Shown here one piece after another: positions 1-61,665 of a stretch of DNA of 61,665 bases. The notes below the pieces were generated by a model, which was not told where the DNA came from, searched no databases, and saw only the letters and a list, made by a program, of their open reading frames with translations. Where the stretch lies: assembly GCA_002633005.1 (NCBI GenBank), contig NMRA01000456.1, positions 1 to 61,665 on the forward strand. The letters run 5' to 3'. Within the stretch, counting starts at the first letter, position 1. Every line of letters begins with the position of its first letter. The position numbers and the translations under genes are program-made. The stretch comes from Phoronis australis (taxonomy: Eukaryota; Animalia; Phoronida).

Positions 1-1
1 T

Positions 2-3000
2 ACTCCGAGTTGTTTCATTTCGGAAGAGGAGGGTCATCTAGACAAAATGCTCAAGGCCGGCGTGATTACTCCGTCTATGAGTGAGTGGGCTGCGGCTCCG
101 GTTTTAATCAGAAAGAAAGCCGACGGTGCAGTCCGGTATTGCATCGACTACAGGAAGCTAAATCGGGTAACCAAAAAGGACTCCTGGCCTTTACCATTGA
201 TAGACGAGTGCATTGATTTACTTGCGGGTAATGTGTGGTTTAGCAAATTAGATGCTAATTCGGCATACTGGCAAATCAAAATACGCGAAGAAGACCGTAA
301 GAAAACGGCTTTCATAACTAAATATGGTCTTTTCGAGTTCAAGTCAATGCCTTTTGGGCTCTGTGGGGCTCCCTCAACCTTTTCACGGGCAATGAGTTTA
401 GTTCTGCGAGGGCTAAACTGGCACACAGTTCTTGCTTTTCTCGACGACATTTTGGTATTGGGTTCTAGTTTTGACGTGCATTTAAACAACCTGCGGGAGG
501 TTTTTGATCGTTTTAGGCAATACCAAATGAGATTGAAACCCAAGAAGTGTTCATTGTTTCAAAAACGCGTTGATTTCTTAGGACGATGGGTGGGCCCTGA
601 GGGGTTAGAAATGGGTCAAGATAATATTGACAAGGTAAAAACCTGGCCTGTTCCAAGAAGTAAAAAACAGTGTCAGAGTTTTCTTGGTTTCGCTAATTAT
701 CATCGTCTTTTTATCAAGGATTTTGCTCGCATTGCGGTGCCACTTTACGAAGTCACTGGGTCCTCTCCCTTTGCGTGGGGGGAGAAGCAGCAGTTAGCTT
801 TTGAAGAGCTTAAGGTGGTTTTAACATCGCCACCCGTGCTGTCGTTACCCAATAATTATGATGAATTTATCCTCGATTGTGACGCTTCTGATCTTGCGAT
901 TGGTGCTTGTTTGTCGCAAGTTCAGAAGGGTGAGGAAAAGGTTATCTCGTATTCGAGTTTTGCGTTGGTGGATGAGCAAAAGCGGTATTGCACGACTAGG
1001 AAGGAATTATTGGCTGTGGTCCGTTTTACTCATCAATATCGACATTATTTGCTGGGTCGGAATTTCCGCGTGCGGACGGATCATAACAGCTTAACATGGT
1101 TGTTGAATTTTAAATCTCCAAGTGGTCAGATAGCGCGTTGGATTCTGCAGCTGCAACAATTTCCGGGTATGAAGATAGAGTATCGGCCGGGTATAAAGCA
1201 TATTAATGCAGATGCACTTTCCCGTATTTCGGTAGATATTTGCAGCAACTATAAACTGGAAGTTTCTCCAGAACAGCTTCCCTGCGGGGGTTGAGTAAAA
1301 TGTCAAAAAGCTCATAATGACTGGTATAGTTTTTCACAAGAAGTGGATGATTCAACATCTCTTGGTAGCGTGGTGGTCACAAAAGTAGATAAATGTATTG
1401 GTACAGAGAGACAGGTAATTACGGCTTCTGTGGGAAGTCAAGAGCCGGATTTGTCTCGGTATATACCTGATGATCTAGCAGAGCAGGAATTTGGATTGGC
1501 TGTGGTTAATCCAAATCTTTCGAAGTCGAGTGATAGTGTTTTTGTGGAATCGGAATTTTGCGTTGTCAACAACAACTCGACCAGCTCAAACTCCTGCGGG
1601 TATTTTAATGAAGCTGAGTTGCCAATTAAACAAAAAGCTGATGTGGATTTGACTTTTGTTTTCAACTGGTTAAAGGAACAGGTAGTTCCTACAGAGCACG
1701 AATTATTCCTGTCTAGTCCGTCAGCAAAGTTTTACTGGATAAACAAAGATCGGTTTTATATTCAAGGTGATGTGTTGTTTTGGAAGTGTCCGGAGGATGA
1801 CCGAGGGTTAATGGTAATTCCTACATAATTAAAATCGGAGGTCCTGAAAATGTGTCATATCATACCATCGGCGGCCCATCAGGGTATTTTCCGGACTAAG
1901 TCAAAAATAAGGTTAAAATATTTCTGGTATGGTTTGACGAAAGATGTCAAGCATTTCATAGGTTCCTGTGGGGCCTGCAATCAGAACAAGCAGGGCAGTA
2001 GACGTGGTCGATTTCCGATGATTCGTTATCATGCTGGTGCGCCGATGGAACGGGTTCATGTGGATTTTCTGGGGCCATTACCTGTGACAAACCGCGGTAA
2101 TGAACATGTTTTAATGATCGTTGATCAGTTCACCAAATGGGTCGAGTGCATTCCGTTACCTTCCCAAACGGCTGAGGTCACAGCCCATGCGGCGGTCAAC
2201 GAGTTCTTCACACGGTTCGGATATCCGTTTCATATTTTTTCAGATCAGGGAAGGAATTTCGACAGCAAACTTTTTAAGTCGCTGTGCGACCTCCTGCACA
2301 TAAATAAGTCAAGAACAACTCCATACCGTCCGTCTGCGAATGGACAGGTAGAGCGATTTAATCGCACGCTCATGGACGCGGTGAGATGTTACGTGAGTGA
2401 TTATCAAGACGACTGGGATATGTTTATTCCGCAAATTGCTGGGGCAATTCGCTCATCAGTCAACCGACATACTGGTTTCTCTCCAAATATGATGATGTTG
2501 GGACGAGAAGTAAATCAGCCGATAGATCTTATATTTCCGGTGGTCACGTCAGTTAATAATCAACCATCTGGTGATTATGTCGGGAGACTTCAAGGGGCAA
2601 TAAGCAAGGCTCATGAAACGGCGCGTCAATTTCTTCAAACTAGTCAATCTTTGATGAAACGGGACTATGATCTTTCAGTGTTTAGGCGTGTGTTTCATCT
2701 GGGTGATCTTGTGTATATCTTTGACTCGGCAACCGTGAAAGGAAAATGTAAAAAATTATCTCCTCCGTGGAAGGGGCCGGGCATTATTACGGAAGTCTTA
2801 ACTCCAGCGTTGTACCGGGTAAGAGTTAAGAATTCAGTTTCGGTAGTTCATCATGACAGAATAAAATTATGTACAACGCAGTATACTGAATTGCCTGATT
2901 GGTTAAAAAGAGTCATTTCTGCTGGAAATGTCATCAACACCAATACCGGGAATAGGGATCCGGAACTTTTTTGCATTTGTCGCAAGCCCGATCACGGGGG

Positions 3001-3115
3001 GCTCATGATTCAGTGCGATTCGTGTGATGACTGGCTTCATGGGGAATGTGTTGATATTACCGCTACTGATGCAAGGGAAATTGACACTTATTGGTGTCCT
3101 CGGTGTAAGCCATAA
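2..3115 (+). pseudogene. pol: Gypsy pol (RT, RNase H, integrase, C-terminal PHD finger), interrupted by two in-frame stops
   Basis: ORFs 47-1294, 1343-1828 and 1850-3115 share one frame, open from base 2. Motifs: RT CIDYRKLN, MPFGL, FLDD; RNase H DCDAS, ELLAV, RTDH, NADALSR; IN HHCC (CHIIPSAAH..CGAC), D (HVDF), D (SDQG), E (QVERF), GPY/F-like WKGP. Stops TGA 1292-1294 and TAA 1826-1828. Confidence 0.95.
2969..3112 (+). other. PHD finger (C4HC3) fused to integrase C-terminus
   Basis: FCICRKPDHGGLMIQCDSCDDWLHGECVDITATDAREIDTYWCPRC. Confidence 0.93.
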
Positions 3116-3159
3116 CATCATTATGATGTAATAATTACATAACCATGTTTTCGTTGTAG

Positions 3160-4954
3160 ATGTCCAGTTCGCCTGTTTAGATGTTCGTTTGCGAACGAAC
3201 CCAGACCTTCCAATAGCGACCTTCAACGAAGGTGAGTCAGGGGCTGTTGAGATAGTCCCTATGGATGCAGAGTCAGTAGTGGGTAAGTCAACTGAATGCC
3301 AAGGTGAAGCGGATTGTACAGTTGCGGCTGTAGACGAAACACAGTCATCGATTAAAACGCCAGTTAGTCCTGCGGGAATCTCGGGGTCATCTAGTCAGAG
3401 TTCGGTAAGTTCTGCGGGTCTTCCATCTCCCTCCTTTTCGTGCCCGTTATGTCCTTTTACGGGGTCGGAGGCCGAGTTTCGGGCACACGCCCTATTACAT
3501 CTTCCGAAAATATTCAATATATCATCTATTCACATGCTCGCGTTTCCGGGGTTACAGCGTCGTCGCGCTTGGGCGATTCTTCGCCTGTTTTCTTACATAG
3601 AGGGTAGGGAATTGGTGTCCTACAGCGATTTGATGGATATGGGGGGGTTGATCGTGCGCAGTTTGCCATGTATACCATCTGTGTTGCTGGTGGACGAGGT
3701 TGCGATGTTCTTAATATGCCGTGTGATGGGATGGCCGATACCATCTCGTTTTATCGCACCGGATGGTCGCTTAGAGAATCCAGCATGTGTGTTCCTCTGG
3801 TACATTATTTTGGGGATGATGGCACGCGTGTCGGAGGCCCTTCGCTCTGAGTGGATCCGTTGGTGTGATGAAGAGTCCGCATCTACCGAAATGCAGGAAG
3901 TACCATTTATTCCTTTAGCGGCGCCACTGCATCAGACATCTACTGGGCTAGACGTTGCGTCGACTCCTACGAACGGACCGGTGAATGCACCGTTAACAAC
4001 GGGGCCTGTGACTACATCGTTCACCAGTTTTGCTCAGGTAGTTGCAGAGTGTTCGTCTAGGCCGGGGGGGCACCTACTGCGATTTCAACTCCACGCAAAG
4101 TAAAAGCGAATCCTCAGGCTTTGGACTCGCATTTCCACATTAATAGGTTATCTGTGGCCCATCGTGAGAAAACGGGCGTACGGACAGTGGACAGATGGCT
4201 GTCAGTACCAGAACTCCTGGCGGCGGATATAAGCAGGCAACCGACGGTGCCAGTGACCCTCTGTGGGGGGATCGTTGTTTTTTGCGATGCACATGACATC
4301 CGCATTGACCTGGGTGCCTATTTGAAGCAGCTTCCTGCAGGATGGAAGGCAGTCGTAGGCATCCATCCTAAACAGCTCTCCAAATTGGATTTCCGTGCGC
4401 GGGAAGTTATGTTGGGGTTGCTGTCAGAACCAAAGGTAGCAGGGCTTGGGGAAGTCGGATTGGAACAAGGTAGGGACGAGGTATGGCAGGCGCGTGCATT
4501 AGAAGATTTGATAATTCATTTTTGTCAGCTGGAAAAGAAAGAAACTGAATATCGTAGGAAGGTGTCAAGCATGATGTTCATTATGATTGGGGTTTTGCTA
4601 CACTCCGTGAGATTTTGCGGCGTCATGCTCCGCAGAGTATTCGTATGCACCTACACACCTCTGTTGGAAATACAAATGTCGTGCGCGACTTCTGTGAAGA
4701 ATTTCCTTCGTTATTTTGGCTTTTCAGGTTTGATATGCAGGTACAACCGCTTGCAGGTTGCAGCGTTAGACACGGTTCCTCTGCAGCGGTTGTTGTTGGA
4801 AACCGATTCCCCTCACCTTCCGGTAAATACTAATCCTAATTACCCTCAGTTTATAGGGGAGGTCGCGGAAGTTGTGGCAAAGCTAAGGGGGGTGTCCACT
4901 GAGGTGGTTCTGGACGAGAGCGTTCGTAATGGACGAAGCTTATACCGATTATAG
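3160..4954 (+). pseudogene. Accessory ORF2: C2H2-like zinc finger, unknown domain and TatD-family nuclease (frameshifted copy)
   Basis: CPLCPFTGSEAEFRAHALLH near 3441-3500. TatD motifs DSHFH, VGIHPK, GLGEVGL, MHLH (alternate frame, ~4561-4710), YFGFSG, LLLETDSP. ORFs 3189-4103 and 4121-4954 join if the G7 run at 4064-4070 is G8. Confidence 0.85.
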
Positions 4955-5495
4955 AGGGGCTTGAGGGTGGTATATGAGATATTATAGAAATAGTTTTTTT
5001 TCCCTTTCTGTTTTTTATATATATATATATATTTTTTTTTTGTTTATGCCTCTTTATTTTATATTTAGGGGCATTTCCGTCTCGTCTGTTCGGACTTCTT
5101 GTGGATTATATTAGTTGTTTCTTTTTTGTTTTTTGTTGTTTTTGTGTATTAAGTTCTTACTTGAGAGTAAGGGGATGGGTTTTTGGTGGTTTTTTGTGTT
5201 TTTTCCTTTTCGTTGAGTGCCCTTTTCTTTTTAGAGTCAATAGGTTTTGTTTTTAGTCATTGTTCTTCAGGCCACTATGTTTAGGATAATTTTCTTTTGG
5301 GAGGGACGGTTTAGTTGTAAAGTGCTACTAACGTCACATCAAATGTAATTTTTTTTCTTTTTTTCATTAAGTTATTTTATTTTTTCTTTCTTTCTGCGAA
5401 ACTAATGGATGTTTCTTTTGGTTACATTTGGTACGACTGTTGGTCTTCTAACATTTGTTTGGGGGTATTAGGATTAAGTTAGGCATATTCTTTTT

Positions 5496-5509
5496 AGGAA
5501 GGGGGGGAG
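5496..5509 (+). promoter_or_regulatory. Polypurine tract (plus-strand primer)
   Basis: AGGAAGGGGGGGAG immediately followed by TGTCGTG. Confidence 0.88.
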
Positions 5510-6156
5510 TGTCGTGAACGTGTATTCTCTCGTTGTGTGGCGTCATGTGGTGTTGTCTTTGTTCGTCTCTGTGTGTGTGTGGTGTTGACATAGTGAGCCA
5601 GTGATAGGTCACGTGACTCTGGGCACGAGGGGGAATCGGGGAGTCTATGAAAGGGTGTGGACCTAGATAGACGTTCTGGAGAGTGTAACTAGAAGCGCTC
5701 TTACAAGTGTGACACTGATGGCAAGCCCGGACAAGAAGTTGGGTAAGTTGGCTGTCTCTGAGGAATTATAGGCCGCGTTACTATAACATCAACCTCGAGG
5801 GTCTGTGCAGGAGACTAGAGACTAGTTATTGGGAAATCCGAAATCCCATTGGACGACCCGCAGTAGCGAACATTGTTTCCAGGCATTGGTCGTTTCATGA
5901 ACCGTAGCGACACTTAGCGGGCGTGTGCTCCGAAGAAAATAAACATGGTCGGTGGACTTGTGACTGGTTTCCCGCTGTGCGTTATCATAAGATTGCTCCG
6001 GTTTATTAACGTATGAAGACTGCTGTACTATACCGTGCGTTGTGTGCTATGTTTACTGTCATGGAACAATGCAGATGAACAGATGACGCTATCTGTCTAT
6101 CACTCTAACCCCGGCGTACCCAGGACCAAGGTCAAGGAGTGAATATTACTCTGACA
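5510..6156 (+). repeat. 3' LTR of the Gypsy element
   Basis: Starts TGTC after the PPT and ends GACA at 6156 (4-bp inverted termini); AATAAA at 5938-5943. Right end not confirmable without the 5' LTR. Confidence 0.72.
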
Positions 6157-6490
6157 TCTATGCTTTCTATGTTGTGAACTAGTATAAAAGCTTATTATGT
6201 CCTTGGACCTAAAATCTTGGCTCCCTGGATATTATGGTTCTTAACTTTTAGTGCTGTTGAGTGAATATCTTCCCATAATGTGTTTCATGCTTTGACAAAT
6301 CAGTTGTGTTCTTTCAATAGCCTACTCGGTGATTGTCAGTGAATTATCCTAGTGGCATGACCTCTGACTTGGATCCGTGGCTGATTTGATCTGCTTGCTT
6401 CTTCATACTTCAAGTCGTTATTATGCCTGGACATAACTGCACTATACTTGTTTTGTGCCTGCATCTCTGATCGTTTGTGATTGGACCCTA

Positions 6491-6853
6491 CACGGGTGAG
6501 AAACAACATGACCGCGGTCCTCTTAAATCGGACCGCCTCACCCAAAACAGGACCTCCGGGGATCAAATGGGATCGTGGCGCCAGGACTGACGCACCTAAA
6601 AACATGACCGCCCCACCACAAAACAGGACCGCCGGGGACTGAACATCATATGATGACCGCCGGGGATTGAAACCGCATATTGTCCGGCGGTCATCATATG
6701 ATGTTCAGTCCTGTTTTGTGGTGGGGCGGTCATGTTTTTAGGTGCATCAGTCCCATTTTCTGGTGCGACGGTCCCATTTGATCCCCGGAGGTCCTGTTTT
6801 GGGTGAGTCAGTGTGATTTAGAGGACCGGCGGTCATGTTGTTTCTCACCCGTG
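6491..6853. mobile_element. Foldback MITE (CAC...GTG termini, possibly EnSpm/CACTA-type)
   Basis: CACGGGTGAGAAACAACATGACCG ... CGGTCATGTTGTTTCTCACCCGTG; ~170-bp arms nearly self-complementary; repeated GACCGCCGGGGA sub-motif. Confidence 0.85.
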
Positions 6854-8013
6854 CATTAGATACTGGAGATTTGATCTTGTACATTACATAGACTTCTACG
6901 CACTATGTACGTCTGGTAACTGCAGGGATTCACAAGACATGACAGTTCCAGTCGTTTTTTAACCAGCGCCCTTTATAGGCCTGCAATACACTGACTAGTC
7001 TACCATTATGCACAAGCCATGTTCTTATGTTTTCAGCTTTTGGGGCCTTTTTATCAGATATCATCACCTTTTTGGTCACATGCCACTGAATGTCCTGTTT
7101 TGACCCTCATTTCAGTGCTCATGTCTTTGTAAAACTCTTGCAGTTTTTACTTACAGCATCATTTTCACAAAGTCATCCATCTAGTCGGCTGTCGACCAGT
7201 TGCAAACCGAAGGGATGTTTTTCAAGAAAATTTTTATAGCATGGCACTGTGTATTACAAGAATGCTTATTATTTGATTTAAAACTAGGTGTTAGTTAATT
7301 CTGCATTACCTAACTTCAATTTGAATGATGTAAACGTAACTTAGGTAGTTAGTTAGTGTGTGAATTAAGATTTCTAGTTTTATATGGCCAAGCTGTGCTG
7401 TAACATGCGTTTAAGGCCATCAATGCATCAAATCTACTTATTTTCTGCCTACTGTATTTTATCATTGTTTCTACCTCATTTTACTTTTACTTTGTTGTCA
7501 TGGAACATAACTCCATACCGTCCAAATATCAAAACCCGAGAAATTCGGTAAACAACTACCTTTTTTCTGTGCTTACCAAAACACTTCTCTTGTCATTAAC
7601 ATTTTTAGCCTTGTTTACTCGCAGCATATTGTATGACCAAGGGACACAAGGGGTCAGGAGTTGACATTGAAATGTTATCTCATTGATGCTCGCACTACTG
7701 AAGTGGCATACAACGCGAAAAACAGACTAAATTGCATAATTCAAAGTGGTTCTCTGCGCCAGAAACTGAAGTTAAACTGTGCACCAGGTATTTTTACCCT
7801 TTGTTCCGTGCAAATTTTAAATTTCTGTACTTATCAAGGCATTTTTCGTTTAGTTTGAAATACCGAAAACCGATGTGTAAACTCCTCATCGATTTTTCTC
7901 CCAAAAGGCAAAGCAGTCTCCTTATTTGGTATGATAAGACATAGATGCTGGTAGCAAATTTCCCATAATGAAAATGTGACCTTTGTTAAATGGAAATGTT
8001 TAGGAGGGTAATT

Positions 8014-21500: not shown

Positions 21501-24500
21501 AGCAGGGGAAATAATTGTACCGGTTGCCCAGAAGACGGAAATAGTACTGTTTCACACCAGGACTTGACCCAAGTATTTGACAGAGCACATGTCCCAGTTT
21601 ATCATACCTCTACACCCACTTATATCACAGAACACATGTCCCAGTTCATCATACCTCTACACTCACCTATATCACAGAGTCATGCAACAGTTCATCATAC
21701 CTCAATACCCACCTATACCACAGAGCACATGTCCCAGTTCATCATACCTCTACACCCACCTATATCACAGAGCACATGCAAAAGTTCATCATACCTCTAC
21801 ATCTACGTATACTACAGAACATAACCAACAGTTCATCATACCTCAAAACCCAGCTTCTTCCAATACTTCTGGTTCTGTTGGTTCTGTCTTTTCTGTGGTT
21901 GGTCCTCTTGCTCACTGTCAAACGCTACCTTCCTCAGTTCAAAGAGAACTTTCACTGCAGTCTACAGAAAGAAATTGTCAATGGCCAGTTACAAAAGAAG
22001 CTCTTTTTTGATACATTGAATTTATAATTTATTATCAGCAGAGCTGAAGGTGTATTGGAGACAACAATTAGGTTACATGTCAGAACATGACAGATGAAGT
22101 CCAACAGCATTTTAAACATTATGTTTCAAAATTTTCAGTAATTTATTGTTCTACCACAAGAACGTCCTGCCAGAAATACAGCACAACTGACCTGGTCCTG
22201 TGAACTATATCGGGTCAACATTCTCTCTTCTAGCAGTCCAAACAACAAGGTTTGCAGTGCGTACAGTTGATGAGCCATCTCAGAGCCAACGGATGAACTC
22301 ACGATGTTCTACAAGGCCAATTGTCAATCATAACTAAAAGGCTATCTGAGAATCGTACCCATAACTTTGTGTACATAATATACAAGGGTGTAAACTTCAA
22401 ATAAAACAGTGAAAAGCAGAAATAATGTGCACGCAGATGACATTAAACATATCATCGTGTCAAATGCAAGAATACCAAAAAGCACATCATAACAGTATAC
22501 ATATCATAGATTGTGTCTTTTGCCAGAATATGGAAAAGCAGACAACACTATACATATTATGACTCGTCTGTCTTCTGCAACAGGGAAAAGCAGATGATAT
22601 TACAAATATTGTATGGCAGATAACAATGGCAAGGCAAAAAACATCAAAGCACATCATAGATTGTGTCTCATTTTTTAAGTGCTCATGTCACTTTTACATT
22701 TACCGCATATGCATGGATTTAGGTGCGTGTGCTTTCATGAGAAGTACAGATTCCATGTATGTGCTTATATGAGAAGCACCGAATTACATGCGTGTGCTAA
22801 CATGAAAAGCACGAAATTGCTTGTAAGTGCATATGAGAAGCACAGAATTATGTACATGTGCTTATATGAAAAGCATGAAATTATGCGTGATATGTGCTTA
22901 TATGAGAAGCATTCAATTACATGCATGTGCTAATATGAAAATCACAGAATTAGGTTTATGTGCTTATTTGAGAACCACTGAATTAGGTGTACGGGGAGCA
23001 TATGTTAAAATGTGAACACTTGAGCAACAAACCTAGGACCAAGCATTACAAAATGGTAGACTACATGTTGACAAGTAATGATTCAACACTAACTATTTAA
23101 CTGCACAAGAAATGGTAAGACACACAAAAATATACCTTAATATACAAGGGCCAAACGCCCGAGTCTAGAAGTTAAACATAGGCGTATGTGCCTAATGTAT
23201 GAACCACTAAGTAAGAATGTTTGGAAAAAATGCTCTATTTTGGACGTAGGCACAAGTGTGTATAGTAAGTAAGTGCATGTATATGGCAACAATGTTTGTT
23301 AAGGTTTCAGACTTTAGGCAAATATCCTGTCTTCACAGTCCAAAAATATGAGTGACAAATGGGTCATTAATACCAGCCACAACAGGGAGCAGGAACATTA
23401 GAGAACACTTAACCGCACAACAGGTACTTACTTGCAGGATGATGTTACGGACAGATTTTGTCTGCAGCCTATCAGCAATGACCTGAAAGATTGAAATGAA
23501 AGCAAATTTGACATTGGAGGCAATCAAGACAAAGTTTTAAAACCAATGTATAAGCCATGCACATGGTTGTATTAAGTCAATATCTCGCAGCATTCAGTTA
23601 TCCAAACTTTTTCGAATTGTGACAATTTTTAAACTCTACATTTTGTAACACTTTTCTTCTACTTTTCAAGTGCAAGCAAGATTAGTTGTTCAAATCTTTT
23701 CCCAACATTAACTGTGCAATTTAATTATAAATTCATGTACTTGCCTTCTTTTGTTCAAGACTCGCTTTCATGAACATCGCATTGATCAGGGCAACAGCAC
23801 ACTTCTGTATCTCTGGATTTGGTCTGCAATTTCCAAAGTCAGGCATGAAAAAAGTTACGGCACCAAGATAGCAGACATTGTCGCCTATATGACATAAAGA
23901 CTGTTTTTATTATGTTACCCTTCAACAGTGCCTTTAGGCAGCGCACTCCCACAATCCTTTGTGTTTTCAAGTACTTATTTAGTGGAAATAATTGCATTCA
24001 ACAGTGAAAATGCAGATTGAAACAGAGTTAAAAACGCTTAATTAACTCAGAGCATATCTTGGCAATAGTCATATATAACCTGCCCACATTTTGAGAACCA
24101 GTTTGATGTCCATAACTCAATTGAGCAAACAGGTTCTCAAAATGCGGGCCTGTTATATCCGACTACCACCCCCATGTCTTTGAATGATAATTGTTAAGCG
24201 ATATGAAGGTCCAACATCTCTAAGATTAACGCTCACAGGGGTAAAATTCTCGGCTTGGAAACAATGTGACTGATACTCCAGCATATACAAGATCAACACC
24301 TAATGTAACAAAACACCATTCATATCAAATGGGCTCACATAAACTGAACTTGATCAATACCTATTGTTTGTTGGTTCATCTTCTAAAAAAATTCATAGAT
24401 TTTCATTGTAAAGACGGGATACTAAATTAAAAAAAATGTGCTTCTAATTTTACAGTTTACACAAAATTATGCAAAGCAAAAATGCCATTTTTCATACAAA

Positions 24501-27500
24501 ATAGCAACATTATTTACCAACAAGAGCAATGCAGAGTGTTGAAATGCTCCCACGAATGCACCGCAAATGGTGTGCTTCCAGGGGTGTTTATTTCTATCAT
24601 AAAAATGACCACTAGATGGCGCAAAATAGATCAAATCCATCCAAAAACAGGAATATGCCATCACTTTTCAAATAGAAAGCTACTTATAAAATTTTATAAA
24701 AATCCATACAGGAACTTCAAAGACACAAAGGTAAATGTAAAAAACTAAAATTGACACTAAGGGACACACCGCTAGCCAGATCCGTCTGAAAGTCGCCGTC
24801 GTCCGTTGTCAACTCCATATAAATATACTAGCTAAATTTAGTAAAGATCCTGCAGAGTGTTTAGAAGATACAGCCATGGGTGCAAAAACAAGCAAAACTG
24901 CCACTAGTAGGCGCCACAGTAGTCGAAGTCATCAGAAAATCATCGTCAGCCGTCCTCTTCAAAGAAAGAAAATAAATGCCAATTTTTATAATCATCCTTA
25001 GAGTGGTTCGGCTGATAGATGGTGGACGCCAAAAAACGGACTCAAAAACAGCAAACATTGCCACTAGGTGGCGCAAAATACCTAGAATCAGTCCGGAAAT
25101 GGGAGGATCTCACTAATAGATGCCTATAGGTCAAATTTCATGAAAATCTGTCGAGGGCCTTTGAAGATACAGAGGTAAATGTAAAAATGTAACATTGCCA
25201 CTAGAGGCACACCGGTAGTTGGATCCATCCGTTGGATCCATCCGTTGGATCCATGCTCACGCCATCCCATTCATGAAGGAAACACGTGTTCAAAATTTCG
25301 TGATTATACAAAAGATTTTGGATATAGAGCAGCGGACATCAGACGCCGGACAGATGGGCCTACAGATATGATGGCATAATGCGTCCATATAATAATGTGG
25401 GAGCACACAAATGACACGAGCACATGTCAATTGGATTGTACAACTTACACCTCAAGTGAGAAGATTAACATTATCAGCCAGTCACAAAAACTGCAGATAC
25501 AAGGTCTCTGGTATTTACTTAGTATACAAAGGAGCACGGTCACATTACATGGACCATGAAATGAGATTGTCCGCAACACAACAATATAATTCATCAAATT
25601 GATTTTCGTCCATTTTTAAAGGCTGAGTAAATATTAATAAAATGTTAATTTATTATGCATTTGTTTCACCATAACTGCACAATACAAACAAGGCTGACGA
25701 TGGAGACGATGCTTATTTTTATTCAGAAACTGGACAAAATAAGATTGTCCAGCAAATTATGCGCTATGAAAACTGTTGGTCAGAGTGCATGACTCACACG
25801 GTCAGGTGCTGCACAAGACTGTCAGGTGACACTTCCTGTTCTACCAGAGTCTTGGTTGAACTTTGCAGTACAATCGACTCGAGGATCTCCAATGACGACT
25901 GGAGAGCTATAGGATCGATATCAGCCAATTTCTTTTTGTTGTTTATCACATAGCTGGACACCTACAAGAAACGAGTCAAATTTATCTTTAAACCAGGGCA
26001 ATGTCCTTGTAAAAGACTCAGGGGTTCAATTTGTACTTGCTGGCTTCCCTCGCCTTCTTAAATGCACAGTTTATTTAAAAAACTATCAGTCTAATATGGC
26101 GGTGAACAAGCACATGGAATGCAAAGCATGCCGTTAAATTACAACTTTAAAGCAATCTCATCGGTGACAATTCTCTTCAAGTATATCTTTAATTAAATTC
26201 CATTAACAAAGTTCTTGTTCAAGGAAAATGTGGACATTTACTGATGAAAAATTCTATGGCACCAGTGGACACATGTCTACTTTCAGACTCAACCAGCAAA
26301 GTTAAGTTAACTTTCCATGATTTCAGACTCATTTGGGCTTTAAATGGAGTGAGTTGGTGCAAGACAAATCTTAAGTGTTGTCTGCTCTTATTCCAATGAT
26401 CTTGTGTGATACCTACTGTTTTGATAAACTGGGACTCCAGTACATCCCACGACACTATCCCATGATCCATCAGCTCAACAAATGCCTTGAGTAGATATGC
26501 AAGAGACTCGCCAGAACTGCAAGTAGAGAGCCACACATTAAAAGTGTATTAAATATCGCAAAAATGAAAACAAGTAGGCACAAATCTCACACAGAAGCCT
26601 GGTCATCTCCAATGTCTTGTGACTGAGAGAATGGTAGCGTTGGACCTGGTTAACACATAGGTACTGAACACACTGAACGCACAATTAATCACCACCACTA
26701 ACTATTAAGACTGCATAAGCCAAGATATATATTAAGTTGTTCTTTAATGAATATCCGGAGTTATTGAATGCACCCACATAATCCTATGTTTAAGATCTCG
26801 AAGATTGAGACGTTAAAACAGAGTAATATTGATGACTGCCATCCAAGCGATGAGAATATCTAAATATACAAATTGCAAGGCGGTTCTTGTCTTTCTGTTG
26901 CTCTATTGCAACGACTGTGTAAAACGGTACCTACTAATACAACAGGTGGCACTATCAGTCACCAGCCCCATGTGATCAGCAAACGGTACCCACCTCAACC
27001 AAGAGCTTTGCCGCTAATGTGTGGGCTTCAAACAATGACGTCACGTGGTGCTTTACCGATCACTGGATTACTGTATCTTTTAATACTAAGCCACAATCTC
27101 AAGAATGTTATAAGGGATCACTTTTTGTTTGGATGATAGAACAATGAAAACAAAATGTCAGAATCTTCAGACTTTCTTGATGATGCTAAACTGCGACCAA
27201 TGCAACAGCTAAATTAGTGTTGATACAGTGTGCATTTTTGATTACCCGTAATATGCCAGGTGTCATTCGCATTAAATCCCTGTCCTATGGCATTAACTTA
27301 CTCATGATATATGCTTCAAACAAATTGGTAAACAGTTCCGCTTCTAACACTGACATCATTTTTGATTGTGTGGTAAAAAGAATAAAATTTCTGTACTACC
27401 ATCCAAGTTAACTACAAATCTGCTTTGAAAAAAAACATGCCATGACCAAACCCTACAGAACTACACTGAAGAAAATGTGTGAAATCCAAGTTAAGTTTGG

Positions 27501-30500
27501 GATTGGTGTCTGTAACGAATCATCATCAGCATAATCACATTCACAAGCAAGGCCTCTGTGTTTGTAGTTTACCTTTGCAACAACTACTCACGTCTCTGTC
27601 TAATATATACAAGCATCACAACCTGCCAGCAGTAAAGTGCTTGGTCGAGTGTGTACCTTTTGCAAGTGATCAGTAGAAACGACATAGTGCAATTCTCCCA
27701 TTTGAAACATGAGAATAAAGAAAGTAACAATACTCCAATGTACAGAAATTGAGGTTTCTCTTATGCACGTCAATACATTGTGTTAAGTTTGTCAAAAATG
27801 TAATATGCCGCATCACAAAAGAATTGACAGCTGTATTAAATGACAGCTAACAAGTGTCAATTGTAAGGAAACCCCAAACATTTTCCTACGAATGGGCACT
27901 GCCTAATATTGTTTGCTTGTCGATTCATTCCGTCAGTAAGTATACTCACTACTTGTTTGTCTCCACCATGGAAATCAACATATTCATGCCGCTCTTGTTA
28001 ATGAACTCTGTAGCAAATGTTATGTCAGACGAGAACTTGGACAACTGTTTGAAGGCGGCTGCTTTTTCCTGCAGTGTACCTGTGCTCAGTTGTTGGATGA
28101 TAGTGTCGACAGTTTTAAGCTGAAATAGAAGTGTATAAATAAGTCAAATAAGTTGGAAGCAAATCGAGTGCATATAAAGAAGTTCAACAACCCACAACTT
28201 GAAACAAAGAAAGAAACTCAGAGAGACTGACAAGCCAACAAATTCCACACACGAGTTCCATTTATAGTACAGATATTGTGGAAAATTAGAGAACTGATCT
28301 GGCCTTGAATGCTTCCCCCTACCCCCCCCCCCCTGAGACAATATTGATACAAAATATCATTTGCTCTTCAAACACATGAAAACTACAAAATGGTTGCGAT
28401 AATGGTTGTTCGCTTAAGTTGTACACCCATTATGAGACTCCTATGTCAAAAAATAGAGTAATGCAAAGCGTTGCTATATGTCCACTGGGTGCACCGCATG
28501 CAGTACAGATACAAGAAATAACTGTATATTTTAAACATTCTCACTAGAGGGAGCACTACCAGTAAACTTAATATAGCCTCCAAGGGGAGCAAAGCAAGTT
28601 CACCAAAAACTTAACTCCATGAACATTGATAAATTAATTTGGTAGATACCACGGNNNNNNNNNNNNNNNNNNNNNNNNNNNNNNNNNNNNNNNNNNNNNN
28701 NNNNNNNNNNNNNNNNNNNNNNNNNNNNNNNNNNNNNNNNNNNNNNNNNNNNNNNNNNNNNNNNNNNNNNNNNNNNNNNNNNNNNNNNNNNNNNNNNNNN
28801 NNNNNNNNNNNNNNNNNNNNNNNNNNNNNNNNNNNNNNNNNNNNNNNNNNNNNNNNNNNNNNNNNNNNNNNNNNNNNNNNNNNNNNNNNNNNNNNNNNNN
28901 NNNNNNNNNNNNNNNNNNNNNNNNNNNNNNNNNNNNNNNNNNNNNNNNNNNNNNNNNNNNNNNNNNNNNNNNNNNNNNNNNNNNNNNNNNNNNNNNNNNN
29001 NNNNNNNNNNNNNNNNNNNNNNNNNNNNNNNNNNNNNNNNNNNNNNNNNNNNNNNNNNNNNNNNNNNNNNNNNNNNNNNNNNNNNNNNNNNNNNNNNNNN
29101 NNNNNNNNNNNNNNNNNNNNNNNNNNNNNNNNNNNNNNNNNNNNNNNNNNNNNNNNNNNNNNNNNNNNNNNNNNNNNNNNNNNNNNNNNNNNNNNNNNNN
29201 NNNNNNNNNNNNNNNNNNNNNNNNNNNNNNNNNNNNNNNNNNNNNNNNNNNNNNNNNNNNNNNNNNNNNNNNNNNNNNNNNNNNNNNNNNNNNNNNNNNN
29301 NNNNNNNNNNNNNNNNNNNNNNNNNNNNNNNNNNNNNNNNNNNNNNNNNNNNNNNNNNNNNNNNNNNNNNNNNNNNNNNNNNNNNNNNNNNNNNNNNNNN
29401 NNNNNNNNNNNNNNNNNNNNNNNNNNNNNNNNNNNNNNNNNNNNNNNNNNNNNNNNNNNNNNNNNNNNNNNNNNNNNNNNNNNNNNNNNNNNNNNNNNNN
29501 NNNNNNNNNNNNNNNNNNNNNNNNNNNNNNNNNNNNNNNNNNNNNNNNNNNNNNNTAAAAATGGCCACTAGGTGGCGCAAACTATGTCGAATCCATCCGA
29601 AAACGGCAGGATAGCGTCATCTCACTACTAGGTGCCTACATACCAAATTTCATGAAAATCCGTTCAGGACTTTTGAAGATACAAAGGTAAGCGTAAAAAA
29701 CTAAAATTGCCACTAGGGGGCACACCGGTAGTCGGATCCGTCCGAAAGTTCGCACATGCCGTCCCATTCATGAATGGAACATATGTGCCAAATTTCATGA
29801 ACGTATGTCAAAGGGTTTTGGAGATAGAGCAGCGGACGCCGGACGCCGGACGCCGGACGGACGCCGCCCGGACGGACGGACGGACGGACGGACGGACGGA
29901 CAGAGATGACGGCATAATGCGTCCACATATAAATATGTGGGCGCATAAAAACATTAAAGCATACCATAGATTGTGTCTCATTTTTTAAGTGCTCATGTCA
30001 CTTTTACATTTACTGTATATGCATGGATTTAGGTGCGTGTGCTTTTATGAGAAGTACAAATTTCATGTATGTGCTTATATGAGACGCACCGAATTACATG
30101 CATGTGCTAATATGAAAATCACAAAATTGCTTGCAAGTGCATATGAGAAGCACGGAATTATGTACAAGTGCTTACATGAAAAGCATGAAATTATGTGTAT
30201 GTGCTTATATGAGAAGCACGGAATTACATGCATGTGCTAATATGAAAATCACATAATTAGGTCTATGTGCTTATTTGAGAACCACTGAATTAGGTGTACG
30301 GGGAGCATATGTTAAAACGTGAACACTTGAGCAACAAACCTAGGACCAAGCATTACAAAATGGTAGACTACATGTTGACAAGTAATGACTCAACACTAAC
30401 TAGTATTTAAATGCACAAAAAATGGTAAGACACACAAAAATATACCTTACTATACAAGGGCCAGACGCCTGAGTCTAGAAGTTAAACATAGGCGTATGTG

Positions 30501-33500
30501 CCTATGTATGAGCCACTAAGTAAAAATGTTTGGAAAAAAACGCTCTATTTTGGACGTAGGCACAAGTGTGTATAGTAAGTAAGTGCATGTATATGGCAAC
30601 AATGTTCATTAAGTTTTCAGACTTTAGGCAAATATCCTGTCTTCACAGTCCAAAAATATGAGTTACAAATGGGTCATTAATACCAGCCACAACAGGGAGC
30701 AGGAACATTAGAGAACACTTAACCGCACAACAGGCACTTACTTGCAGGATGATGTTACGGACAGATTTTGTCTGCAGCCTATCAGCAATGACCTGAAAGA
30801 TTGAAATGAAAGCAAATTTGAAATTGGAGGCACTTACGACAAAGTTTTAAAACCAGTGTATAAGTATGGTTGTATTAATTCAATATCTCACAGCATTCAG
30901 TTATCCAAACTTTTTTTCGAATTGTGACAGTTTTTAAACTCTATATTTTATAACACTTTTCTTCCACTTTTCAAGTGCAAGCAAAATTAGTTGTTCAAAT
31001 CTTTTCCCAACATTTACTATGCAATTTAATTATAAATTCATGTACTTGCCTTCTTTTGTTCAAGACTCGCTTTCATGAACATCGCATTGATCAGGGCAAC
31101 AGCACACTTCTGTATCTCTGGATTTGGTCTGCAATTTCCAATGTCAGGCATGAAAAAAGTTACGGCACCAAGATAGCAGACATTGTCGCCTATATGACAT
31201 AAAGACTGTTTTTATTATGTTACCATTATCCTTCACAAGTGCCTTTAGGCAGCGCACTCCCACAATCCTTTGTGTTTTCAAGTACTTATTTAGTGGAAAT
31301 AATTGCATTCAACAGTGAAAATGCAGATTGAAACAGAGTTAAAAACGCTTAAATAACTCAGAGCATATCTTGGCAATAGTCATATATAACCTGCCCACAT
31401 TTTGAGAACCAGTTTGATGTCCATAACTCAGTTGAGCAAACAGGTTCTCAAAATGCGGGCCTGTTATATCCGACTATCACCCCCATGTCTTTGAATGATA
31501 ATTGTTAAGCGATCTGAAGGTCTAACACCTCTAAGATTAACGCTCACAGGGGTAACATTCTCGGCTTGGAAACAATGTGACTGATAGTCCAGCATATACA
31601 AGATCACCACCTAATGTAACAAAACACCATTCATATCAAATGTGCTCACATAAACTGAACTTGGTCAATACCTATTGTTTGTTGGTTCATCTTCTAAAAA
31701 AATTCATAGATTTTCATTTGTAAAGACGGGATACTAAATTCAAAAAAAATGTGCTTCTAATTATACAGTTTACACAACATTATGCAAAGCAAAAATGCCA
31801 TTTTTCATACAAAATAGAAACATTATTTACCAACAAGAGCAATGCAGAGCGTTGAAATGCCCCCACGAATGCACCGCAAATGGTGTGCTTCTAGGGGTGT
31901 TTATTTCTATCATAAAAATGACCACTAGATGGCGCAAAATAGATCAAATCCATCCAAAAACAGGAACATGCCATTACTTTTCAAATAGAAAGCTACTTAT
32001 AAAATTTTATAAAAATCCATTAAGGAACTTCAAAGACACAAAGGTAAATGTAAAAAACTAAAATTGACACTAAGGGACACACCGCTAGCCAGATCCGTCT
32101 GAAAGTCGCCGTCGTCCGTTGTCAACTCCATATAAATATACTAGCTAAATTTAGTAAAGATCCTGCTGAGTGTTTAGGAGATACAGCCATGGGCGCAAAA
32201 ACAAACAAAACTGCCACTAGTAGGCGCCACAGTAGTCGAAGTCATCAGAAAATCATCGTCAGCCGTCCTCTTCAAAGAAAGAAAATAAATGCCAGTTTTT
32301 ATAATCATCCTTAGAGTGGTTCGGCTGATAGATGGTGGACGCCAAAAAACGGACTCAAAAACATTGCCACTAGGTGGCGCAAAATACCTAGAATCCGTCC
32401 GGAAATGGGAGGATCTCACTAATAGATGCCTATAGGTCAAATTTTATGAAAATCTGTCAAGGGCCTTTGAAGATACAGAGGTAAATGTAAAAATGTAACA
32501 TTGCCACTAGGGGCACACCGGTAGTTGGATCCATTCGTTGGATCCATGCTCACGCCATCCCATTCATGAAGGAAACACGTGTTCAAAATTTCGTGATTAT
32601 ACAAAAGATTTTGGATATAGAGCAGCGGACATCAGACGCCGGACAGATGGGCCTACAGATATGATGGCATAATGCGTCCACCTATTATGTGGGCGCATAC
32701 AAGTGACACAAGCACATGTCAATTGGATTGTACAACTTACACCTCAAGTGAGAAGGTTAATATTCTCAGCCAGTCATAAAAAGCAGATACAAGGTCTCTG
32801 GTATTTACTTAGTATACAAAGGAGCACGGTCACATTACATGGACCATGAAATGAGATTGTCCGCAACACAACAATGTAATTCATCAAATTGATTTTCTTC
32901 CATTTTTAAAGGCTGTCAAGTAAATATTAATAAAATGTTAATTTATTATGCATTTGTTTCACCATAACTGCACAATACAAACAAAACTGACGATGGAGAC
33001 GATGCTTATTTTTATTCAGAAACTGGACAAAATAAGATTGTCCAGCAAATTATGTGCTATGAAAACTGTTGGTCAGCGTGCATGACTCACACGGTCAGGT
33101 GCTGCACAAGGCTGTCAGGTGACACTTCCTGTTCTACCAGAGTCTTGGTTGAACTTTGCAGTACAATCGACTCGAGGATCTCCAATGACGACTGGAGAGC
33201 TATGGGATCGATATCAGCCAATTTCTTTTTGTTGTTAATCACATAGCTGGACACCTGCAAGAAACGAGTCAAATTTATCTTTAAACCAGGGCAATGTCCT
33301 TGTAAAAGAGGCAGGGGTTCCATTTGTACTTGCTGGCTTGCTTCGCCTTTTTAAATGCACAGTTTATTTAAAAAACTATCAGTCTAATATGGCGGTGAAC
33401 AAGCACATGGAATCCAAAGCATGCCAATAAATTACAACTTTAAAGCAGTCTCATCTGTGACGATTCTCTTCAAGTTCTCTTCAAAGTTCTTGTTCAAGGA

Positions 33501-36500
33501 AAATGTGGACATTTACCGATGAAAAATTCTATGGCACCAGTGGACACACGTCTACTTTCAGATTCAACCAGCAAAAAAAGTTAAGTTAACTTTCCATGAT
33601 TTCAGACTCATTTGGGCTTTAAATGGAGTGAGTTGGTGCAAGACAAATCTTAAGTGTCGTCTGCTCCTATTCCAATGATCTCGTGTGATACCTACTGTTT
33701 TGATAAACTGGGACTCCAGTACATCCCACGACACTATCCCATGATCCATCAGCTCAACAAATGCCTTGAGTAGATATGCAAGAGACTCGCCAGAACTGCA
33801 AGTAAAGAGCCACACATTAAAAATGTAAAAAATATCGCAAAAATGAAAACCAGTAGGCACAAATCTTGTACAGTAGCCTGGTCATCTCCAATGTCTTGTG
33901 AGTGAGAGAATAGTATTGTTGGATCTTGTTAATACATAGGTATGGAACGCACTAAATGCACAAACTATCACCACCCTTTATTAAGACTGCATAAGCCAAG
34001 ATATATACAAATTTGTTTATTTTTAGTGAATGTCCGAAGTTACTGAATGCACCCACATAATCCTATGTTTAAGACCAAGCGACGAGAATATTTAAATATA
34101 CAAATTGCAAGACAGTTCTTGTCCTTCTGTTGCTCTATTGCAATGACTGTGAAAACGGTACCTACTAATACAACAGGTGGCACTATCAGTCACCAGTCCC
34201 ATGTGATCAGCAAACGGTACCCACCTCAACCAAGAGCTTTGCCGCTAATGTGTGGGCTTCACACAATGACATCACGTGGTGCTTTACCGCTCACTGGATT
34301 ATTGTATTTTTTAATACTAAGCCACAATCTCAAGGATGTTAAAAGTGATCACTTTTTGTTTGGAGGATAGAACAATGAAAACAAAATGTCAGAATCTTCA
34401 GACTTTCTTGATGATGCTAAACTGCGACCAATGCAACAGCTTAATTAATGTTGATATAGTGCGTATTTTTGAACACCGGTAATATGTCAGGTGTTATTCG
34501 CATTAAATCCCTGTGCTATGGCATTAACTTACTCATAATATATGCTTCAAACAAATTGGTAAACATTTCCGCTTCTAACACTGACATCATTTTTGATTGT
34601 GTGGTAAAAAGAATAAATTTCTGTACTACCATCCAAGTTAACTACAAATCTGTTTAGAAAAAAAAACATGCCATGACCAAACCCTACAGAACTACACTGA
34701 AGAAAATGTGTGAAATCCAAGTTAAGTTTGGGATCGGTGTCTGTAACGAATCATCATCAGCATAATCACATTCACAAGCAAGGCCTCTGTGTTTGTAGTT
34801 TACCTTTGCAACAACTACTCACGTCTCTGTCTAATATATACCACCTGCCAGCAGTAAAGTGCTTGGTCGAGTGGGTACCTTTTGCAATTGATCAGTAGAC
34901 ACGACATAGTGCAATTCTCCCCATTTAAAACATGAGAATAAAGAAAGTAACAATACTCCAACGTACAGAAATTGAGGTTTCTCTTATGCACGTCAATACA
35001 TTGTGTTAAGTTTGTCAAAAATGTAATGTGCCGCATCACAAAAGAATTGACAGCTGTATTAAATGACAGCTAACAAGTGTCAATTGTAAGGAAACCGCTT
35101 CACCTTGTGTCCTATACTCCACTGCGTTGATGAACTGTTTTGGGCAAATTAATGATAAACATTTTCCTACGAATGGGCACTGCCTAATATTGTTTGCTTG
35201 TCGATTCATTCCGTCAGTAAGTATACTCACTACTTGTTTGTCTCCACCATGGAAATCAACATATTCATGCCGCTCTTGTTAATGAACTCAGTAGCAAATG
35301 TTATGTCAGACGAGAACTTGGACAACTGTTTGAAGGCGGCTGCTTTTTCCTGCAATGTACCTGTGCTCAGTTGTTGGATGATAGTGTCGACAGTTTTAAG
35401 CTGAAATAGAAGTGTATAAATAAGTCAAATAAGTCGGAAGCAAATCGAGTGCATATAAAGAAGTTCAACAACCCACAACTTAAAACAAAGAAACTCAGAG
35501 AGACTGACAAGCCAACAAATTCCACATATGAGTTCCATTTATAGTACAGATATTGTGGCAAATTAGAGAACTGATCTGGCCTTCCGCAAACCTTGNACTT
35601 CAAACACATGAAAACTACAAAATGGTTGCGATAACGGTTGTTCGCTTAAGTTGTACACCCATTATGAGACTCCTATGTCAAAAAATAGAGTAATGCAAAG
35701 CGTTGCTATATGTCCACTGGGTGCACCGCATGTAGTACAGATACAAGCAATAACTGTATATTTTAAACATTCTCACTAGAGGGAGCACTACCAGTAAACT
35801 TAATATAGACTCCAAGGGGAGCAAAGCAAGTTCACCAAAAACTTAACTCCATGAACATTGATAAATTAATTTGGTAGATACCACGGTTAAAGTAAAAACG
35901 TGCAATTGCCACTATAAACTGCGGCACTATTGGCATTTGTCCGAAAATTAAGGGGTGACACCTTATCTGCAGGTGTTTAATTTCACAAGAAGCCCTCAAG
36001 GGATGTGTCATAGATGTTTGGATGCTACTGGGGGTATTGGCAAGTTTCACATGGTTTATAGAACGAGAGTTCTAGTGCGGACAAACTTAAAGAAGTGCCA
36101 GTCAATCCATAATTTGGACAATCGTATATTTCAAATTTTATGAAGATCCTTCACGGACTCGGTAAACATTGAAGTCAAAATGCAAAGAAAACTAAAATTC
36201 TCACATTTGGCAATGCCACATTGGCCATATCCATCCCATAACTGATGCCAGCTGTGCATTCTTCAATAGGAACAAGTAGCCAAATTTCATGAACAACCAT
36301 CAAGGGACTTAATAGATGCTGGGGCAAGTTCAAAAAACAAAATTGCCACTTTGGGTCCCATAGAAGTCAGATCTATCCAAAAATCAATGGCAGCAATGTA
36401 CATCTCGATAGGATCATATCTGTTAAATTTCACATATCATCAAAGAATTTGGCAGGTAATGGGGCAGATGTCTGCATATCAAAAGCAACCATGCTTTCCT

Positions 36501-61047: not shown

Positions 61048-61065
61048 TGGTAGCAGAGCAAGGTT
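61048..61065 (+). promoter_or_regulatory. Primer binding site for initiator tRNA-Met
   Basis: TGGTAGCAGAGCAAGGTT, complementary to the 3' end of an invertebrate-type tRNA-iMet. Confidence 0.9.
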
Positions 61066-61068
61066 GAA

Positions 61069-61665
61069 ATGTCTTCAACTGTTAGCTACAAGAACCCACC
61101 TAGGTTTGGGGAAAACTATCAGGAGTGGAAGCAAGAGATAGAACTGTGGAAGAGGGTAACTGATTTACCTTGTGAAAAACAGGGCCTAGCGGTGAGTTTA
61201 ACTCTCACAGGGAGAGCGAGGGAAACTGCACTGCAACTGGAGGCCAAGGACCTAGAGAAAAAAGACGGTCTAATAACACTAGTGGGAGAACTAGACAAGA
61301 TCTATCTTAAGGAGAGCAAGGACTATGCTTATGAAGCATACAAAAATTTTGACACCTTTATGCGTAAGGACGGTCAGCCAATTAGTGATTTTATTTGTGA
61401 CTTTGACGGCTTAAATAAGAAGTGTCACAAATATGACATGTTTTTGCCGGATGCTGTTCTAGCATTCAAGCTTCTGGATGGGGCAAATCTCAGCAAAACA
61501 GAGAAACAAATGACACTGACGGCGTGTACGGACTTAACGTATGAAAGTATGAAATCGGCACTTCGGCGAATTTTCGGAACGTATGATATTAAAAGTGAGG
61601 CGTCGGAGGGCGTTGCGATAAAAGATGAAGTCCTCTATGGGAAGTGGAGGAGAGCTCCACAGACA
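61069..61665 (+). CDS. gag: Copia (GalEa-like) gag, open to window end
   Basis: MSSTVSYKNPPRFGENYQEWKQEIELWKRVT...KQGLAVSLTL...LPDAVLAFKLL...YESMKSALRRIFG; 199 codons without a stop (absent from the ORF track because it is unterminated). Confidence 0.85.
   Translation, partial: MSSTVSYKNPPRFGENYQEWKQEIELWKRVTDLPCEKQGLAVSLTLTGRARETALQLEAKDLEKKDGLITLVGELDKIYLKESKDYAYEAYKNFDTFMRKDGQPISDFICDFDGLNKKCHKYDMFLPDAVLAFKLLDGANLSKTEKQMTLTACTDLTYESMKSALRRIFGTYDIKSEASEGVAIKDEVLYGKWRRAPQT

Follow-up and report, generated by a model that had tools for sequence, protein, structure and literature searches.

In Drosophila, the gypsy element is said to express env from a singly spliced subgenomic RNA from which gag-pol has been removed, as Pelisson et al. 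reportedly found in 1994. In human T-cell leukaemia virus type 1 (HTLV-1), bovine leukaemia virus (BLV) and the foamy viruses, the major splice donor lies in the R region of the long terminal repeat (LTR), upstream of the primer-binding site, and is present at both transcript ends. PMC7828637 lists the donor in a figure legend only. For avian retroviruses, env-type splicing with a start codon taken from the 5' exon is textbook knowledge (PMC8220723), and the third open reading frames (ORF3s) of LTR retrotransposons of the bdelloid rotifer Juno/Vesta type 'are expressed from spliced messages', in the words of PMC5408684. Here, we analyze a Ty3/gypsy element in a 61,665-nucleotide (nt) stretch of a Phoronis australis contig (the whole stretch is referred to as the window), which carries behind pol an open reading frame, ORF2, that ends in a TatD nuclease domain. 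The copy in the window is dead, owing to stop codons in pol and broken TatD and ORF2 frames. Because RNA reads join the LTR at position 5742 to position 3160, just behind pol, sister copies probably make a spliced subgenomic RNA that skips gag-pol and is predicted to be translated from an LTR-borne ATG (5718), in frame, into the ORF2 protein.

The arrangement resembles the env mRNA of the avian sarcoma/leukosis viruses (Rous sarcoma virus, RSV, and RCAS), in which the 5' exon gives the start codon and a few codons and is spliced in frame to a downstream gene. In RSV and RCAS, however, the ATG is that of gag and lies downstream of the primer-binding site, whereas the Phoronis element has both its ATG and its donor inside the LTR; on unspliced RNA nothing more than an upstream ORF of 17 codons follows that ATG, and the downstream gene is a cargo nuclease fusion, not an envelope. 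With gypsy and the errantiviruses it shares its Ty3/gypsy affiliation, a third ORF behind pol and (reportedly, for gypsy) a singly spliced RNA, but its ORF2 is without an envelope-type Pfam family and ends in TatD, and its integrase ends in a PHD finger. A captured enzymatic third ORF, nuclease included, is also found in Juno/Vesta (DEDDy exonuclease, GDSL esterase); the Phoronis enzyme differs in being a TatD nuclease of the amidohydrolase fold, and the element in having a mapped junction and an LTR-borne start codon. The position of the donor within the repeat recalls HTLV-1, BLV and the foamy viruses as they are generally described, although those are complex vertebrate retroviruses and no membership is implied. 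While env-type subgenomic splicing is known, what is new is that a junction has been mapped for a TatD cargo, that donor and ATG both lie within the LTR and that the layout extends across the clade. No papers linking TatD with Gypsy and integrase were found in a literature search that left supplements and subscription journals outside its scope; TatD and 'LTR retrotransposon' are mentioned together in PMC5408686 and PMC5840709, both times for unrelated reasons, and PMC13524379 holds no text on splicing.

The original prediction held that ORF2 is made from a spliced mRNA that skips gag-pol, and that RNA reads should run from ...AAGAAGTTGG in the LTR to ATGTCCAGTTC... behind pol. Eight sequencing runs are filed under the same species label; four RNA data sets were mapped on positions 1-6200 of the window, and a second mapping included two DNA runs of the species (X1 and X2), as contigs. 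The predicted junction was found in RNA from two studies. The reads step back by 2583 nt, from 5741 to 3159 with one ambiguous letter, which is equivalent to 5742|3160 with GT/AG borders. In X8, where the second mapping recovered it again, the junction is carried by three reads from two start places, one of these reads extending at least 58 letters to each side, and the first mate of the junction reads lies on the minus strand, the same sense as the stranded exon reads. In X5, from another study, it is carried by one 236-nt contig (depth 22.7) in which 19 LTR letters are followed by 3159-3373 with no mismatches. The joined form is present in none of the contigs from X1 and X2, although these contigs cover every bin. 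Strandedness was read from X6, a library from the study that also produced X8, where the depth over 3128-3241 is 21.1 against 0 and first-mate-on-minus reads carry a plus-strand GT donor; the junction reads therefore represent plus-strand RNA. With its GT/AG borders, an acceptor placed behind pol and ahead of the 3' ORF, and a joined form absent from the DNA contigs, the RNA junction thus corresponds to that of env-type splicing, in which the donor lies near the 5' end.

The depth profiles support the same conclusion. In X8, sense depth is 0 throughout 2900-3127, and from the acceptor to 4267 it runs at 3.2, 4.5, 2.6, 1.1, 2.7, 2.7, 1.7, 1.8, 2.3 and 1.0, before coverage resumes in the LTR; the X5 contig enters ORF2 by 214 nt. 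This X8 profile is that of a subgenomic RNA, and since sense depth is 0 upstream and present from the acceptor, practically all sense RNA that enters ORF2 is spliced and pol is silent. The LTR bin that contains exon 1 has a depth of 9.35, compared with 5.0 and 5.2 in its neighbors, and this doubling fits an exon placed at both ends of a linear RNA. In X5, depth is 0 over pol (1-2484) and 96-192 over 4969-5589, where the DNA run X1 is even; the X5 profile is RNA-like and 3'-biased. The LTR ATG at 5718 is present on the spliced RNA, since one of the junction reads covers 58 nt or more of the sequence ahead of the donor.

The signals flanking the junction lie where they had been predicted. The coding part of the mini-exon (5718-5742, plus strand) reads ATG GCA AGC CCG GAC AAG AAG TTG G, encoding MASPDKKL plus one base, and is followed in phase 1 by the 5' splice site GTAAGT (5743-5748), 234 nt from the LTR start; a TATA-like TATGAAAG (5646-5653), recognized by its sequence, lies upstream and includes an ATG at 5647. 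The 3' splice site (3137-3159, plus strand) comprises ACATAAC, which resembles a branch point and is predicted to be one, a pyrimidine-rich stretch and the AG at 3158-3159, and the RNA joint demonstrates the use of both sites. The downstream exon starts at 3160, where the final G of the mini-exon and the following AT form a GAT codon in the ORF2 frame, and the first in-frame ATG of ORF2 itself is indeed at 3261. An LTR start near 5000 was not borne out; the LTR begins at 5510, after a polypurine tract at 5496-5509. Without splicing, the ATG at 5718 opens the short upstream ORF with its stop codon TAG at 5769-5771. In simulations, 4917 of 20000 LTR-sized sequences contained any GTRAGT and 1362 of the 20000 contained an open ATG..GTRAGT mini-exon in the needed phase; the window acceptor has 10 pyrimidines of 16 and clears just the laxest of four filters. 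Because the mini-exon motif is fairly frequent by chance and the acceptor is moderate, sequence alone is weak evidence here, and it is the RNA junction that lifts the motif above chance.

Under the proposed mechanism, transcription would start in R of a 5' LTR that has the same sequence as the 3' LTR, with the TATA-like box as the putative promoter. The LTR exon would derive from that 5' LTR, outside the window, and the intron would comprise the remaining LTR, the primer-binding site, gag and pol. Ribosomes would start at the first AUG, 5718, which on unspliced genomic RNA would give nothing beyond the 17-codon upstream ORF. The product would be a zinc-finger/helical domain fused to a TatD nuclease, and the mRNA would end at the poly(A) signal of the 3' LTR.

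To place the layout in its wider family, a search with the integrase-PHD part of pol yielded 80 related loci from metagenome contigs, 26-75% identical; in 38 of them or more, the tblastn match extends as far as residue 400 of the integrase-PHD query, or further. A blastn comparison of window 3100-6000 with the 80 loci gave no DNA-level match, and the relatives therefore belong to different families within a single clade. A 23-mer that spans mini-exon and donor had 0 exact matches in metagenome and viral contigs. TatD matches are present in 23 of the 80 loci, 21 of them behind the integrase and two in permuted contigs. Complete ORF2s were obtained for seven relatives (690-1085 amino acids), each ending in TatD and containing nothing else known to Pfam, with no envelope family among the seven; the TatD domain is full or nearly full in 7/7 (from the profile start to 209-253 of 253). 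In loci L008, L009 and L018, gag and TGG-starting sites follow the LTR. Three contigs (L008, L009 and L011) have identical 99-nt ends and are circularly permuted whole Gypsy-TatD elements with one collapsed LTR, in which the gag, pol and ORF2 frames are all intact.

Both splice signals recur in these relatives. Acceptors were sought within -3 to +100 of the pol stop in 38 loci, with filters set on the number of pyrimidines in 16. The strict filter found a site in 12/38 loci, compared with 7.7% expected (P 1.8e-5); sites with at least 10 pyrimidines, the only filter that the window site clears, are present in 30/38 (P 2e-8), with at least 11 in 22/38 (P 1.7e-7) and with at least 13 in 8/38 (P 6e-6). 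The signature at the LTR start of the window (a G-rich purine tract, then TGTxGT) is common to 15 loci, and donors were sought in the 14 of these that have at least 260 nt of LTR, L045 being omitted as too short. Counted from the LTR start, a GTRAG falls at 130-250 nt in 9/14 LTRs, compared with 17.5% expected (P 1.3e-4, an optimistic value as the span was picked after five cases had been seen); in L018 the offset is 233 nt, next to 234 nt in the window. A donor in the LTR and an acceptor after pol are thus a feature of the clade, the sites in relatives being predicted ones. The expectation that donor, acceptor and phase would be conserved holds in kind for donor and acceptor, whereas the phase is not conserved clade-wide. 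Conservation within the window's own family was judged from read-mapping tables alone, among the rows listed.

The ORF2 protein consists of two parts. The N-part (3160-4100, plus strand) is one open frame, stop-to-stop 3135-4103, with a zinc-finger-like CxxC...HxxxxH motif (3441-3500) and a conserved helical domain (~3430-3890) that is shared by nine sequences (the window, L001, L002, L008-L012 and L018, aligned in part). An AlphaFold model built with these nine sequences describes a conserved domain of ~150 residues, a zinc-knuckle-like hairpin with helices, at a predicted local distance difference test score (pLDDT) of 71.4 overall and 75-95 for residues ~10-165; the single-sequence fold (pLDDT 39.4) was useless. 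No Pfam family was found in 3135-4103, Foldseek comparison of the nine-sequence fold with the PDB gave nothing better than E 1.0, protein searches with the N-part, including its first 120 amino acids, gave no matches, and the ESM Atlas held no usable match for the window N-part or for the middle part of L011.

The C-part (4061-4954, plus strand, stop TAG 4952-4954) lies in a different frame from the N-part, overlapping it at 4061-4103, and matches TatD_DNase (PF01026) at 72.1 bits, against a Pfam gathering cut-off of 27; its relatives in the PDB are YcfH/TatD (E 5e-9). Pfam detects only TatD_DNase in 4061-4954 and no retroviral or errantiviral envelope family in ORF2. The metal site of TatD proteins is marked by the motifs DxHxH, GE.GLD, H.R, H.F.G and ETDxP. 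The L018 domain aligns with Escherichia coli YcfH (1yix) at all five motifs. In the window copy the domain is in frame only at profile positions 2-117 and 171-252, the middle (~4540-4710) being out of frame, and no uninterrupted TatD domain with all metal-binding motifs is found. The predicted function of the TatD domain is that of a metal-dependent nuclease.

How translation of ORF2 begins is the point at which the most serious alternative arises. The frame opens at 3135 and contains no in-frame ATG before 3261; between the acceptor and 3261 there are two out-of-frame ATGs, at 3160 (which stops after 6 codons) and at 3181. Positions 3174-3233 encode CLDVRLRTNPDLPIATFNEG, which is 60% identical to the ORF2 of L001 over 20 amino acids (E 2e-6), with a collinear second match to L001 of 25% over 160 alignment columns (E 3e-7). 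The motif class, D-[IYVM]-R-L-[RK]-x-[ND]-P, is present in L003, L004, L008, L010, L012, L022 and L036; it stands 102-149 residues behind the first methionine in seven relatives and is partial in L012. Because this conserved motif of the relatives' ORF2 precedes 3261, 3174-3233 is coding sequence that is reachable solely from an upstream ATG, and on the spliced RNA the LTR ATG is the sole candidate start for it. The start codon was also listed for 15 relatives (the 12 strict-filter loci plus L008, L009 and L011, picked by eye), and in 12/15 an ATG of their own, 1-10 nt past the acceptor, opens ORF2, the exceptions being L002, L009 and L018. An LTR-supplied ATG is therefore not general and appears particular to the window's family, which has likely lost the first ~100-140 codons of ORF2 and would now rely on the LTR ATG. 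As a separate observation, ORF2 begins MAS... in L004, L011, L012, L020, L022 and L044, several of which continue with SPKR(S/G)W, and the out-of-frame ATG at 3160 of the window reads MSSSPV. A common origin of MASPDKKL with these N-termini (MAS..SPKR.W) was considered and set aside, the likeness being too short to tell from chance.

These data also allow the splice to be real and the in-frame LTR ATG coincidental, with ORF2 starting at 3261 or being a decaying gene without its original start, of which the ATG at 3160 may be a vestige. We regard this as unlikely, but as the alternative that fares best. The ATG at 3160 sits exactly where most relatives have their own, 1-10 nt past the acceptor, and stops after 6 codons; an open in-phase ATG is expected by chance at a frequency of ~0.28 once a donor is given; and DNA depth suggests ~2-3 internal copies, with the copy in the window broken. 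A start at 3261, on the other hand, would leave the conserved ORF2 motif untranslated upstream and would lie behind two out-of-frame ATGs, and the LTR ATG is on the spliced RNA, where it is the first AUG for any transcription start downstream of 5647.

As the donor lies downstream of the acceptor at the locus itself, and the identity of the LTRs makes the junction reads ambiguous, the same reads could arise by back-splicing, in which the donor of the 3' LTR joins the upstream acceptor at 3160 of one copy to give a 2583-nt circular RNA. This is improbable, since X8 sense reads continue past the donor (depth 5.2 over 5750-5863) and the exon-1 bin has approximately double depth, both as expected for linear RNA. 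Back-splicing would moreover place the donor in a terminal exon, ~200 nt ahead of the sole AATAAA, and it is forward splicing that predicts the retention of a donor in the LTR and an acceptor after pol among the relatives.

The sequence just behind the acceptor is found in other transcripts too. Positions 3160-3232 (plus strand) form either a second exon of 73 nt or the beginning of the ORF2 body, and behind them lies an internal donor, GTGAGT (3233-3238, plus strand), that is heavily used in X6 (40 reads) and X7 (23 reads). Reads leaving at this donor continue into sequence outside the window; neither the foreign sequence joined to it nor eight other loose ends could be located within the window. 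Two X7 reads join 3232 to ~5500, just ahead of the LTR, and in X6 and X7 the left (RNA-5') end of many molecules (10 and 5, respectively) falls precisely on 3162, without any unaligned letters ahead of it. Because only the 3162-3232 piece is seen in X6 and X7, without ORF2, other splicing patterns dominate in these samples. The 71-nt piece could reflect transcription that starts internally, a host transcript of chimeric make-up or one more isoform. As an exon, the 73-nt piece seems to serve other RNAs as well, and these possibly come from another copy with an internal start. The molecules that start at 3162, together with an AT-rich TAATAATTA ~30 nt upstream of that position, raise the alternative that most ORF2 expression comes from an internal promoter immediately ahead of the acceptor, with the LTR splice as a minor by-product. 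We consider this about as improbable as back-splicing, and if anything slightly more so: the transcripts in question exit at the 3233 donor and do not cover ORF2 (X6 depth is 0 from 3242 on), in X8, where ORF2 is covered, it is the junction reads that are seen at the acceptor, and an RNA of this kind would open with two short out-of-frame ORFs. It is very improbable that the junction reads stem from unspliced transcription of a gag-pol-less copy already present in the genome, a retrotransposed spliced RNA, for although contigs drop rare variants and their silence in X1 and X2 is not proof, two DNA runs covering every bin contain 0 joined contigs, and the very same splice would have been needed to generate a copy of that kind.

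Several points weigh against the preferred reading, that sister copies make the spliced RNA and translate it from the LTR ATG. On the RNA side, support amounts to three reads and one contig, which is thin; the RNA status of X5 is a guessed label; DNA contigs can miss rare forms; no 5'-end pile-up in the LTR was reported among the mapped RNA reads, which map no transcript start; coverage in X8 ends at 4267, and no read places the TatD part on the same RNA; and in X6 and X7 the sole sense signal on the internal part is 3162-3232 spliced at 3233, with ORF2 uncovered. As to the element, its 5' LTR, primer-binding site and gag lie outside the window, and the window copy is unable to make the protein, with two stops in pol and ORF2 breaks at 4061-4103 and ~4540-4710. 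In X2, one sister contig (depth 6.3 of 16.4) carries an insertion of 2 letters after position 3202 that shifts the frame of that copy. As to the start codon, the ATG at 5718 has a weak context (C at -3), an open in-phase ATG would accompany a donor by chance in ~28% of cases (1362/4917 simulated LTRs), and conservation of the LTR ATG does not extend to the clade, given the 12/15 relatives with an ATG of their own. Finally, neither the acceptor nor the 3233 donor of the window aligns with L001 at the DNA level.

Positions 1-~5987 are the 3' part of a dead Ty3/gypsy element, in the order RT-RNaseH-IN-PHD (reverse transcriptase, RNase H, integrase, PHD finger), ORF2 (orphan N-part and TatD nuclease) and 3' LTR. 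The pol remnant (2-3115, plus strand) is one frame, truncated at the window start inside the reverse transcriptase, with in-frame stops TGA 1292-1294 and TAA 1826-1828, and ends with TAA 3113-3115. Pfam detects RVT_1 (4.6e-32), RT_RNaseH, Integrase_H2C2 and rve in this order in the single frame, which is the reverse transcriptase, RNase H, integrase order of Ty3/gypsy elements (Metaviridae). A PHD finger (2972-3112; Pfam PHD 1.5e-10) occupies the C-terminus of the integrase, in place of the chromodomain of chromoviruses. ORF2 is followed by a T-rich 3' untranslated region (4955-5495, plus strand) that is found in sister copies and strongly covered in X5, and by the polypurine tract AGGAAGGGGGGGAG (5496-5509, plus strand), with a like signature ahead of the LTR start in 15 relatives. 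The 3' LTR (5510-5987, plus strand) has a well-supported start (TGTCGTGAACG, TGTCGTG), just upstream of which the reads of three RNA runs and the DNA contigs split into differing flanks, and ends somewhere in 5945-5990. The depth of the DNA contigs rises from ~65-190 across internal sequence to values of 1336, 468 and 1740 over 5522-5863, which is 5-15 times the internal level, and returns to the flank level of ~55 past ~5978. The sole AATAAA in 5510-6100 (5938-5943, plus strand) is the predicted poly(A) signal and would place the donor inside R. The TGGCTG that directly follows the donor could be read as a primer-binding site, and the LTR would then stop at 5748; this reading was rejected because DNA depth stays at the LTR level to ~5863. 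Neither a second LTR nor a second copy of the element was found within the window, and neither the exact 3' end of the LTR nor a target-site duplication was found. Sister copies in DNA contigs and RNA reads show small indels relative to the window inside ORF2, among the rows listed, and the frame breaks of ORF2 may be private to the window copy.

The LTR is also transcribed in antisense elsewhere. In X6, depth in the opposite orientation is 14-15x over 5510-5800, with reads leaving the LTR at 5793 and sharing differences at 5603, 5641, 5662-5664, 5674, 5704 and 5762, which identifies a diverged LTR copy transcribed antisense at another place. Beyond the element, a foldback element resembling a miniature inverted-repeat transposable element lies ~500 nt past the LTR (6483-6855) and has nested inverted repeats (94-nt arms 86% complementary, 46-nt arms 98% and 28-nt arms 100%). 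A direct duplication of ~6 kb (22634-28654 and 29943-35886, 94-99% identical), with an N gap at ~28.65-29.55 kb between its halves, may be real or an assembly artefact. On the minus strand, an open frame at 58661-59071 with CitMHS / Na_sulph_symp matches probably represents a single exon of a host gene for a sodium-coupled carboxylate/sulfate transporter. The end of the window (61046-61665) holds the start of another LTR retroelement, with a gag-like open frame that has no Pfam match and runs off the window, and with TGGTAGCAGAGC, which we take to resemble a primer-binding site for initiator tRNA-Met.

A broader interpretation can be offered tentatively and falls well short of probable: that a widespread Gypsy clade with retrovirus-like splicing from an LTR donor expresses a zinc-finger/TatD nuclease; that in the family of the window the original start was lost and the start of an R-region upstream ORF was co-opted by way of the splice; and that the 73-nt exon, which has a donor of its own, gives rise to further isoforms in the manner of complex retroviruses. 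The extra genes of LTR retrotransposons are usually assumed, rather than shown, to be expressed in the manner of env, and here public RNA data contain, exact to the base, a junction for which sequence had been the only basis of prediction. The combination of a donor in the LTR and an acceptor after pol recurs across a diverse clade with a full TatD nuclease, which warns that TatD genes of this kind are genes of mobile elements and should not be annotated as host genes. The system also offers a handle on two questions: how the start codon of a repeat is reused as an upstream ORF on genomic RNA and as a gene start on spliced RNA, and what an enzyme of a DNase family does for a retroelement.

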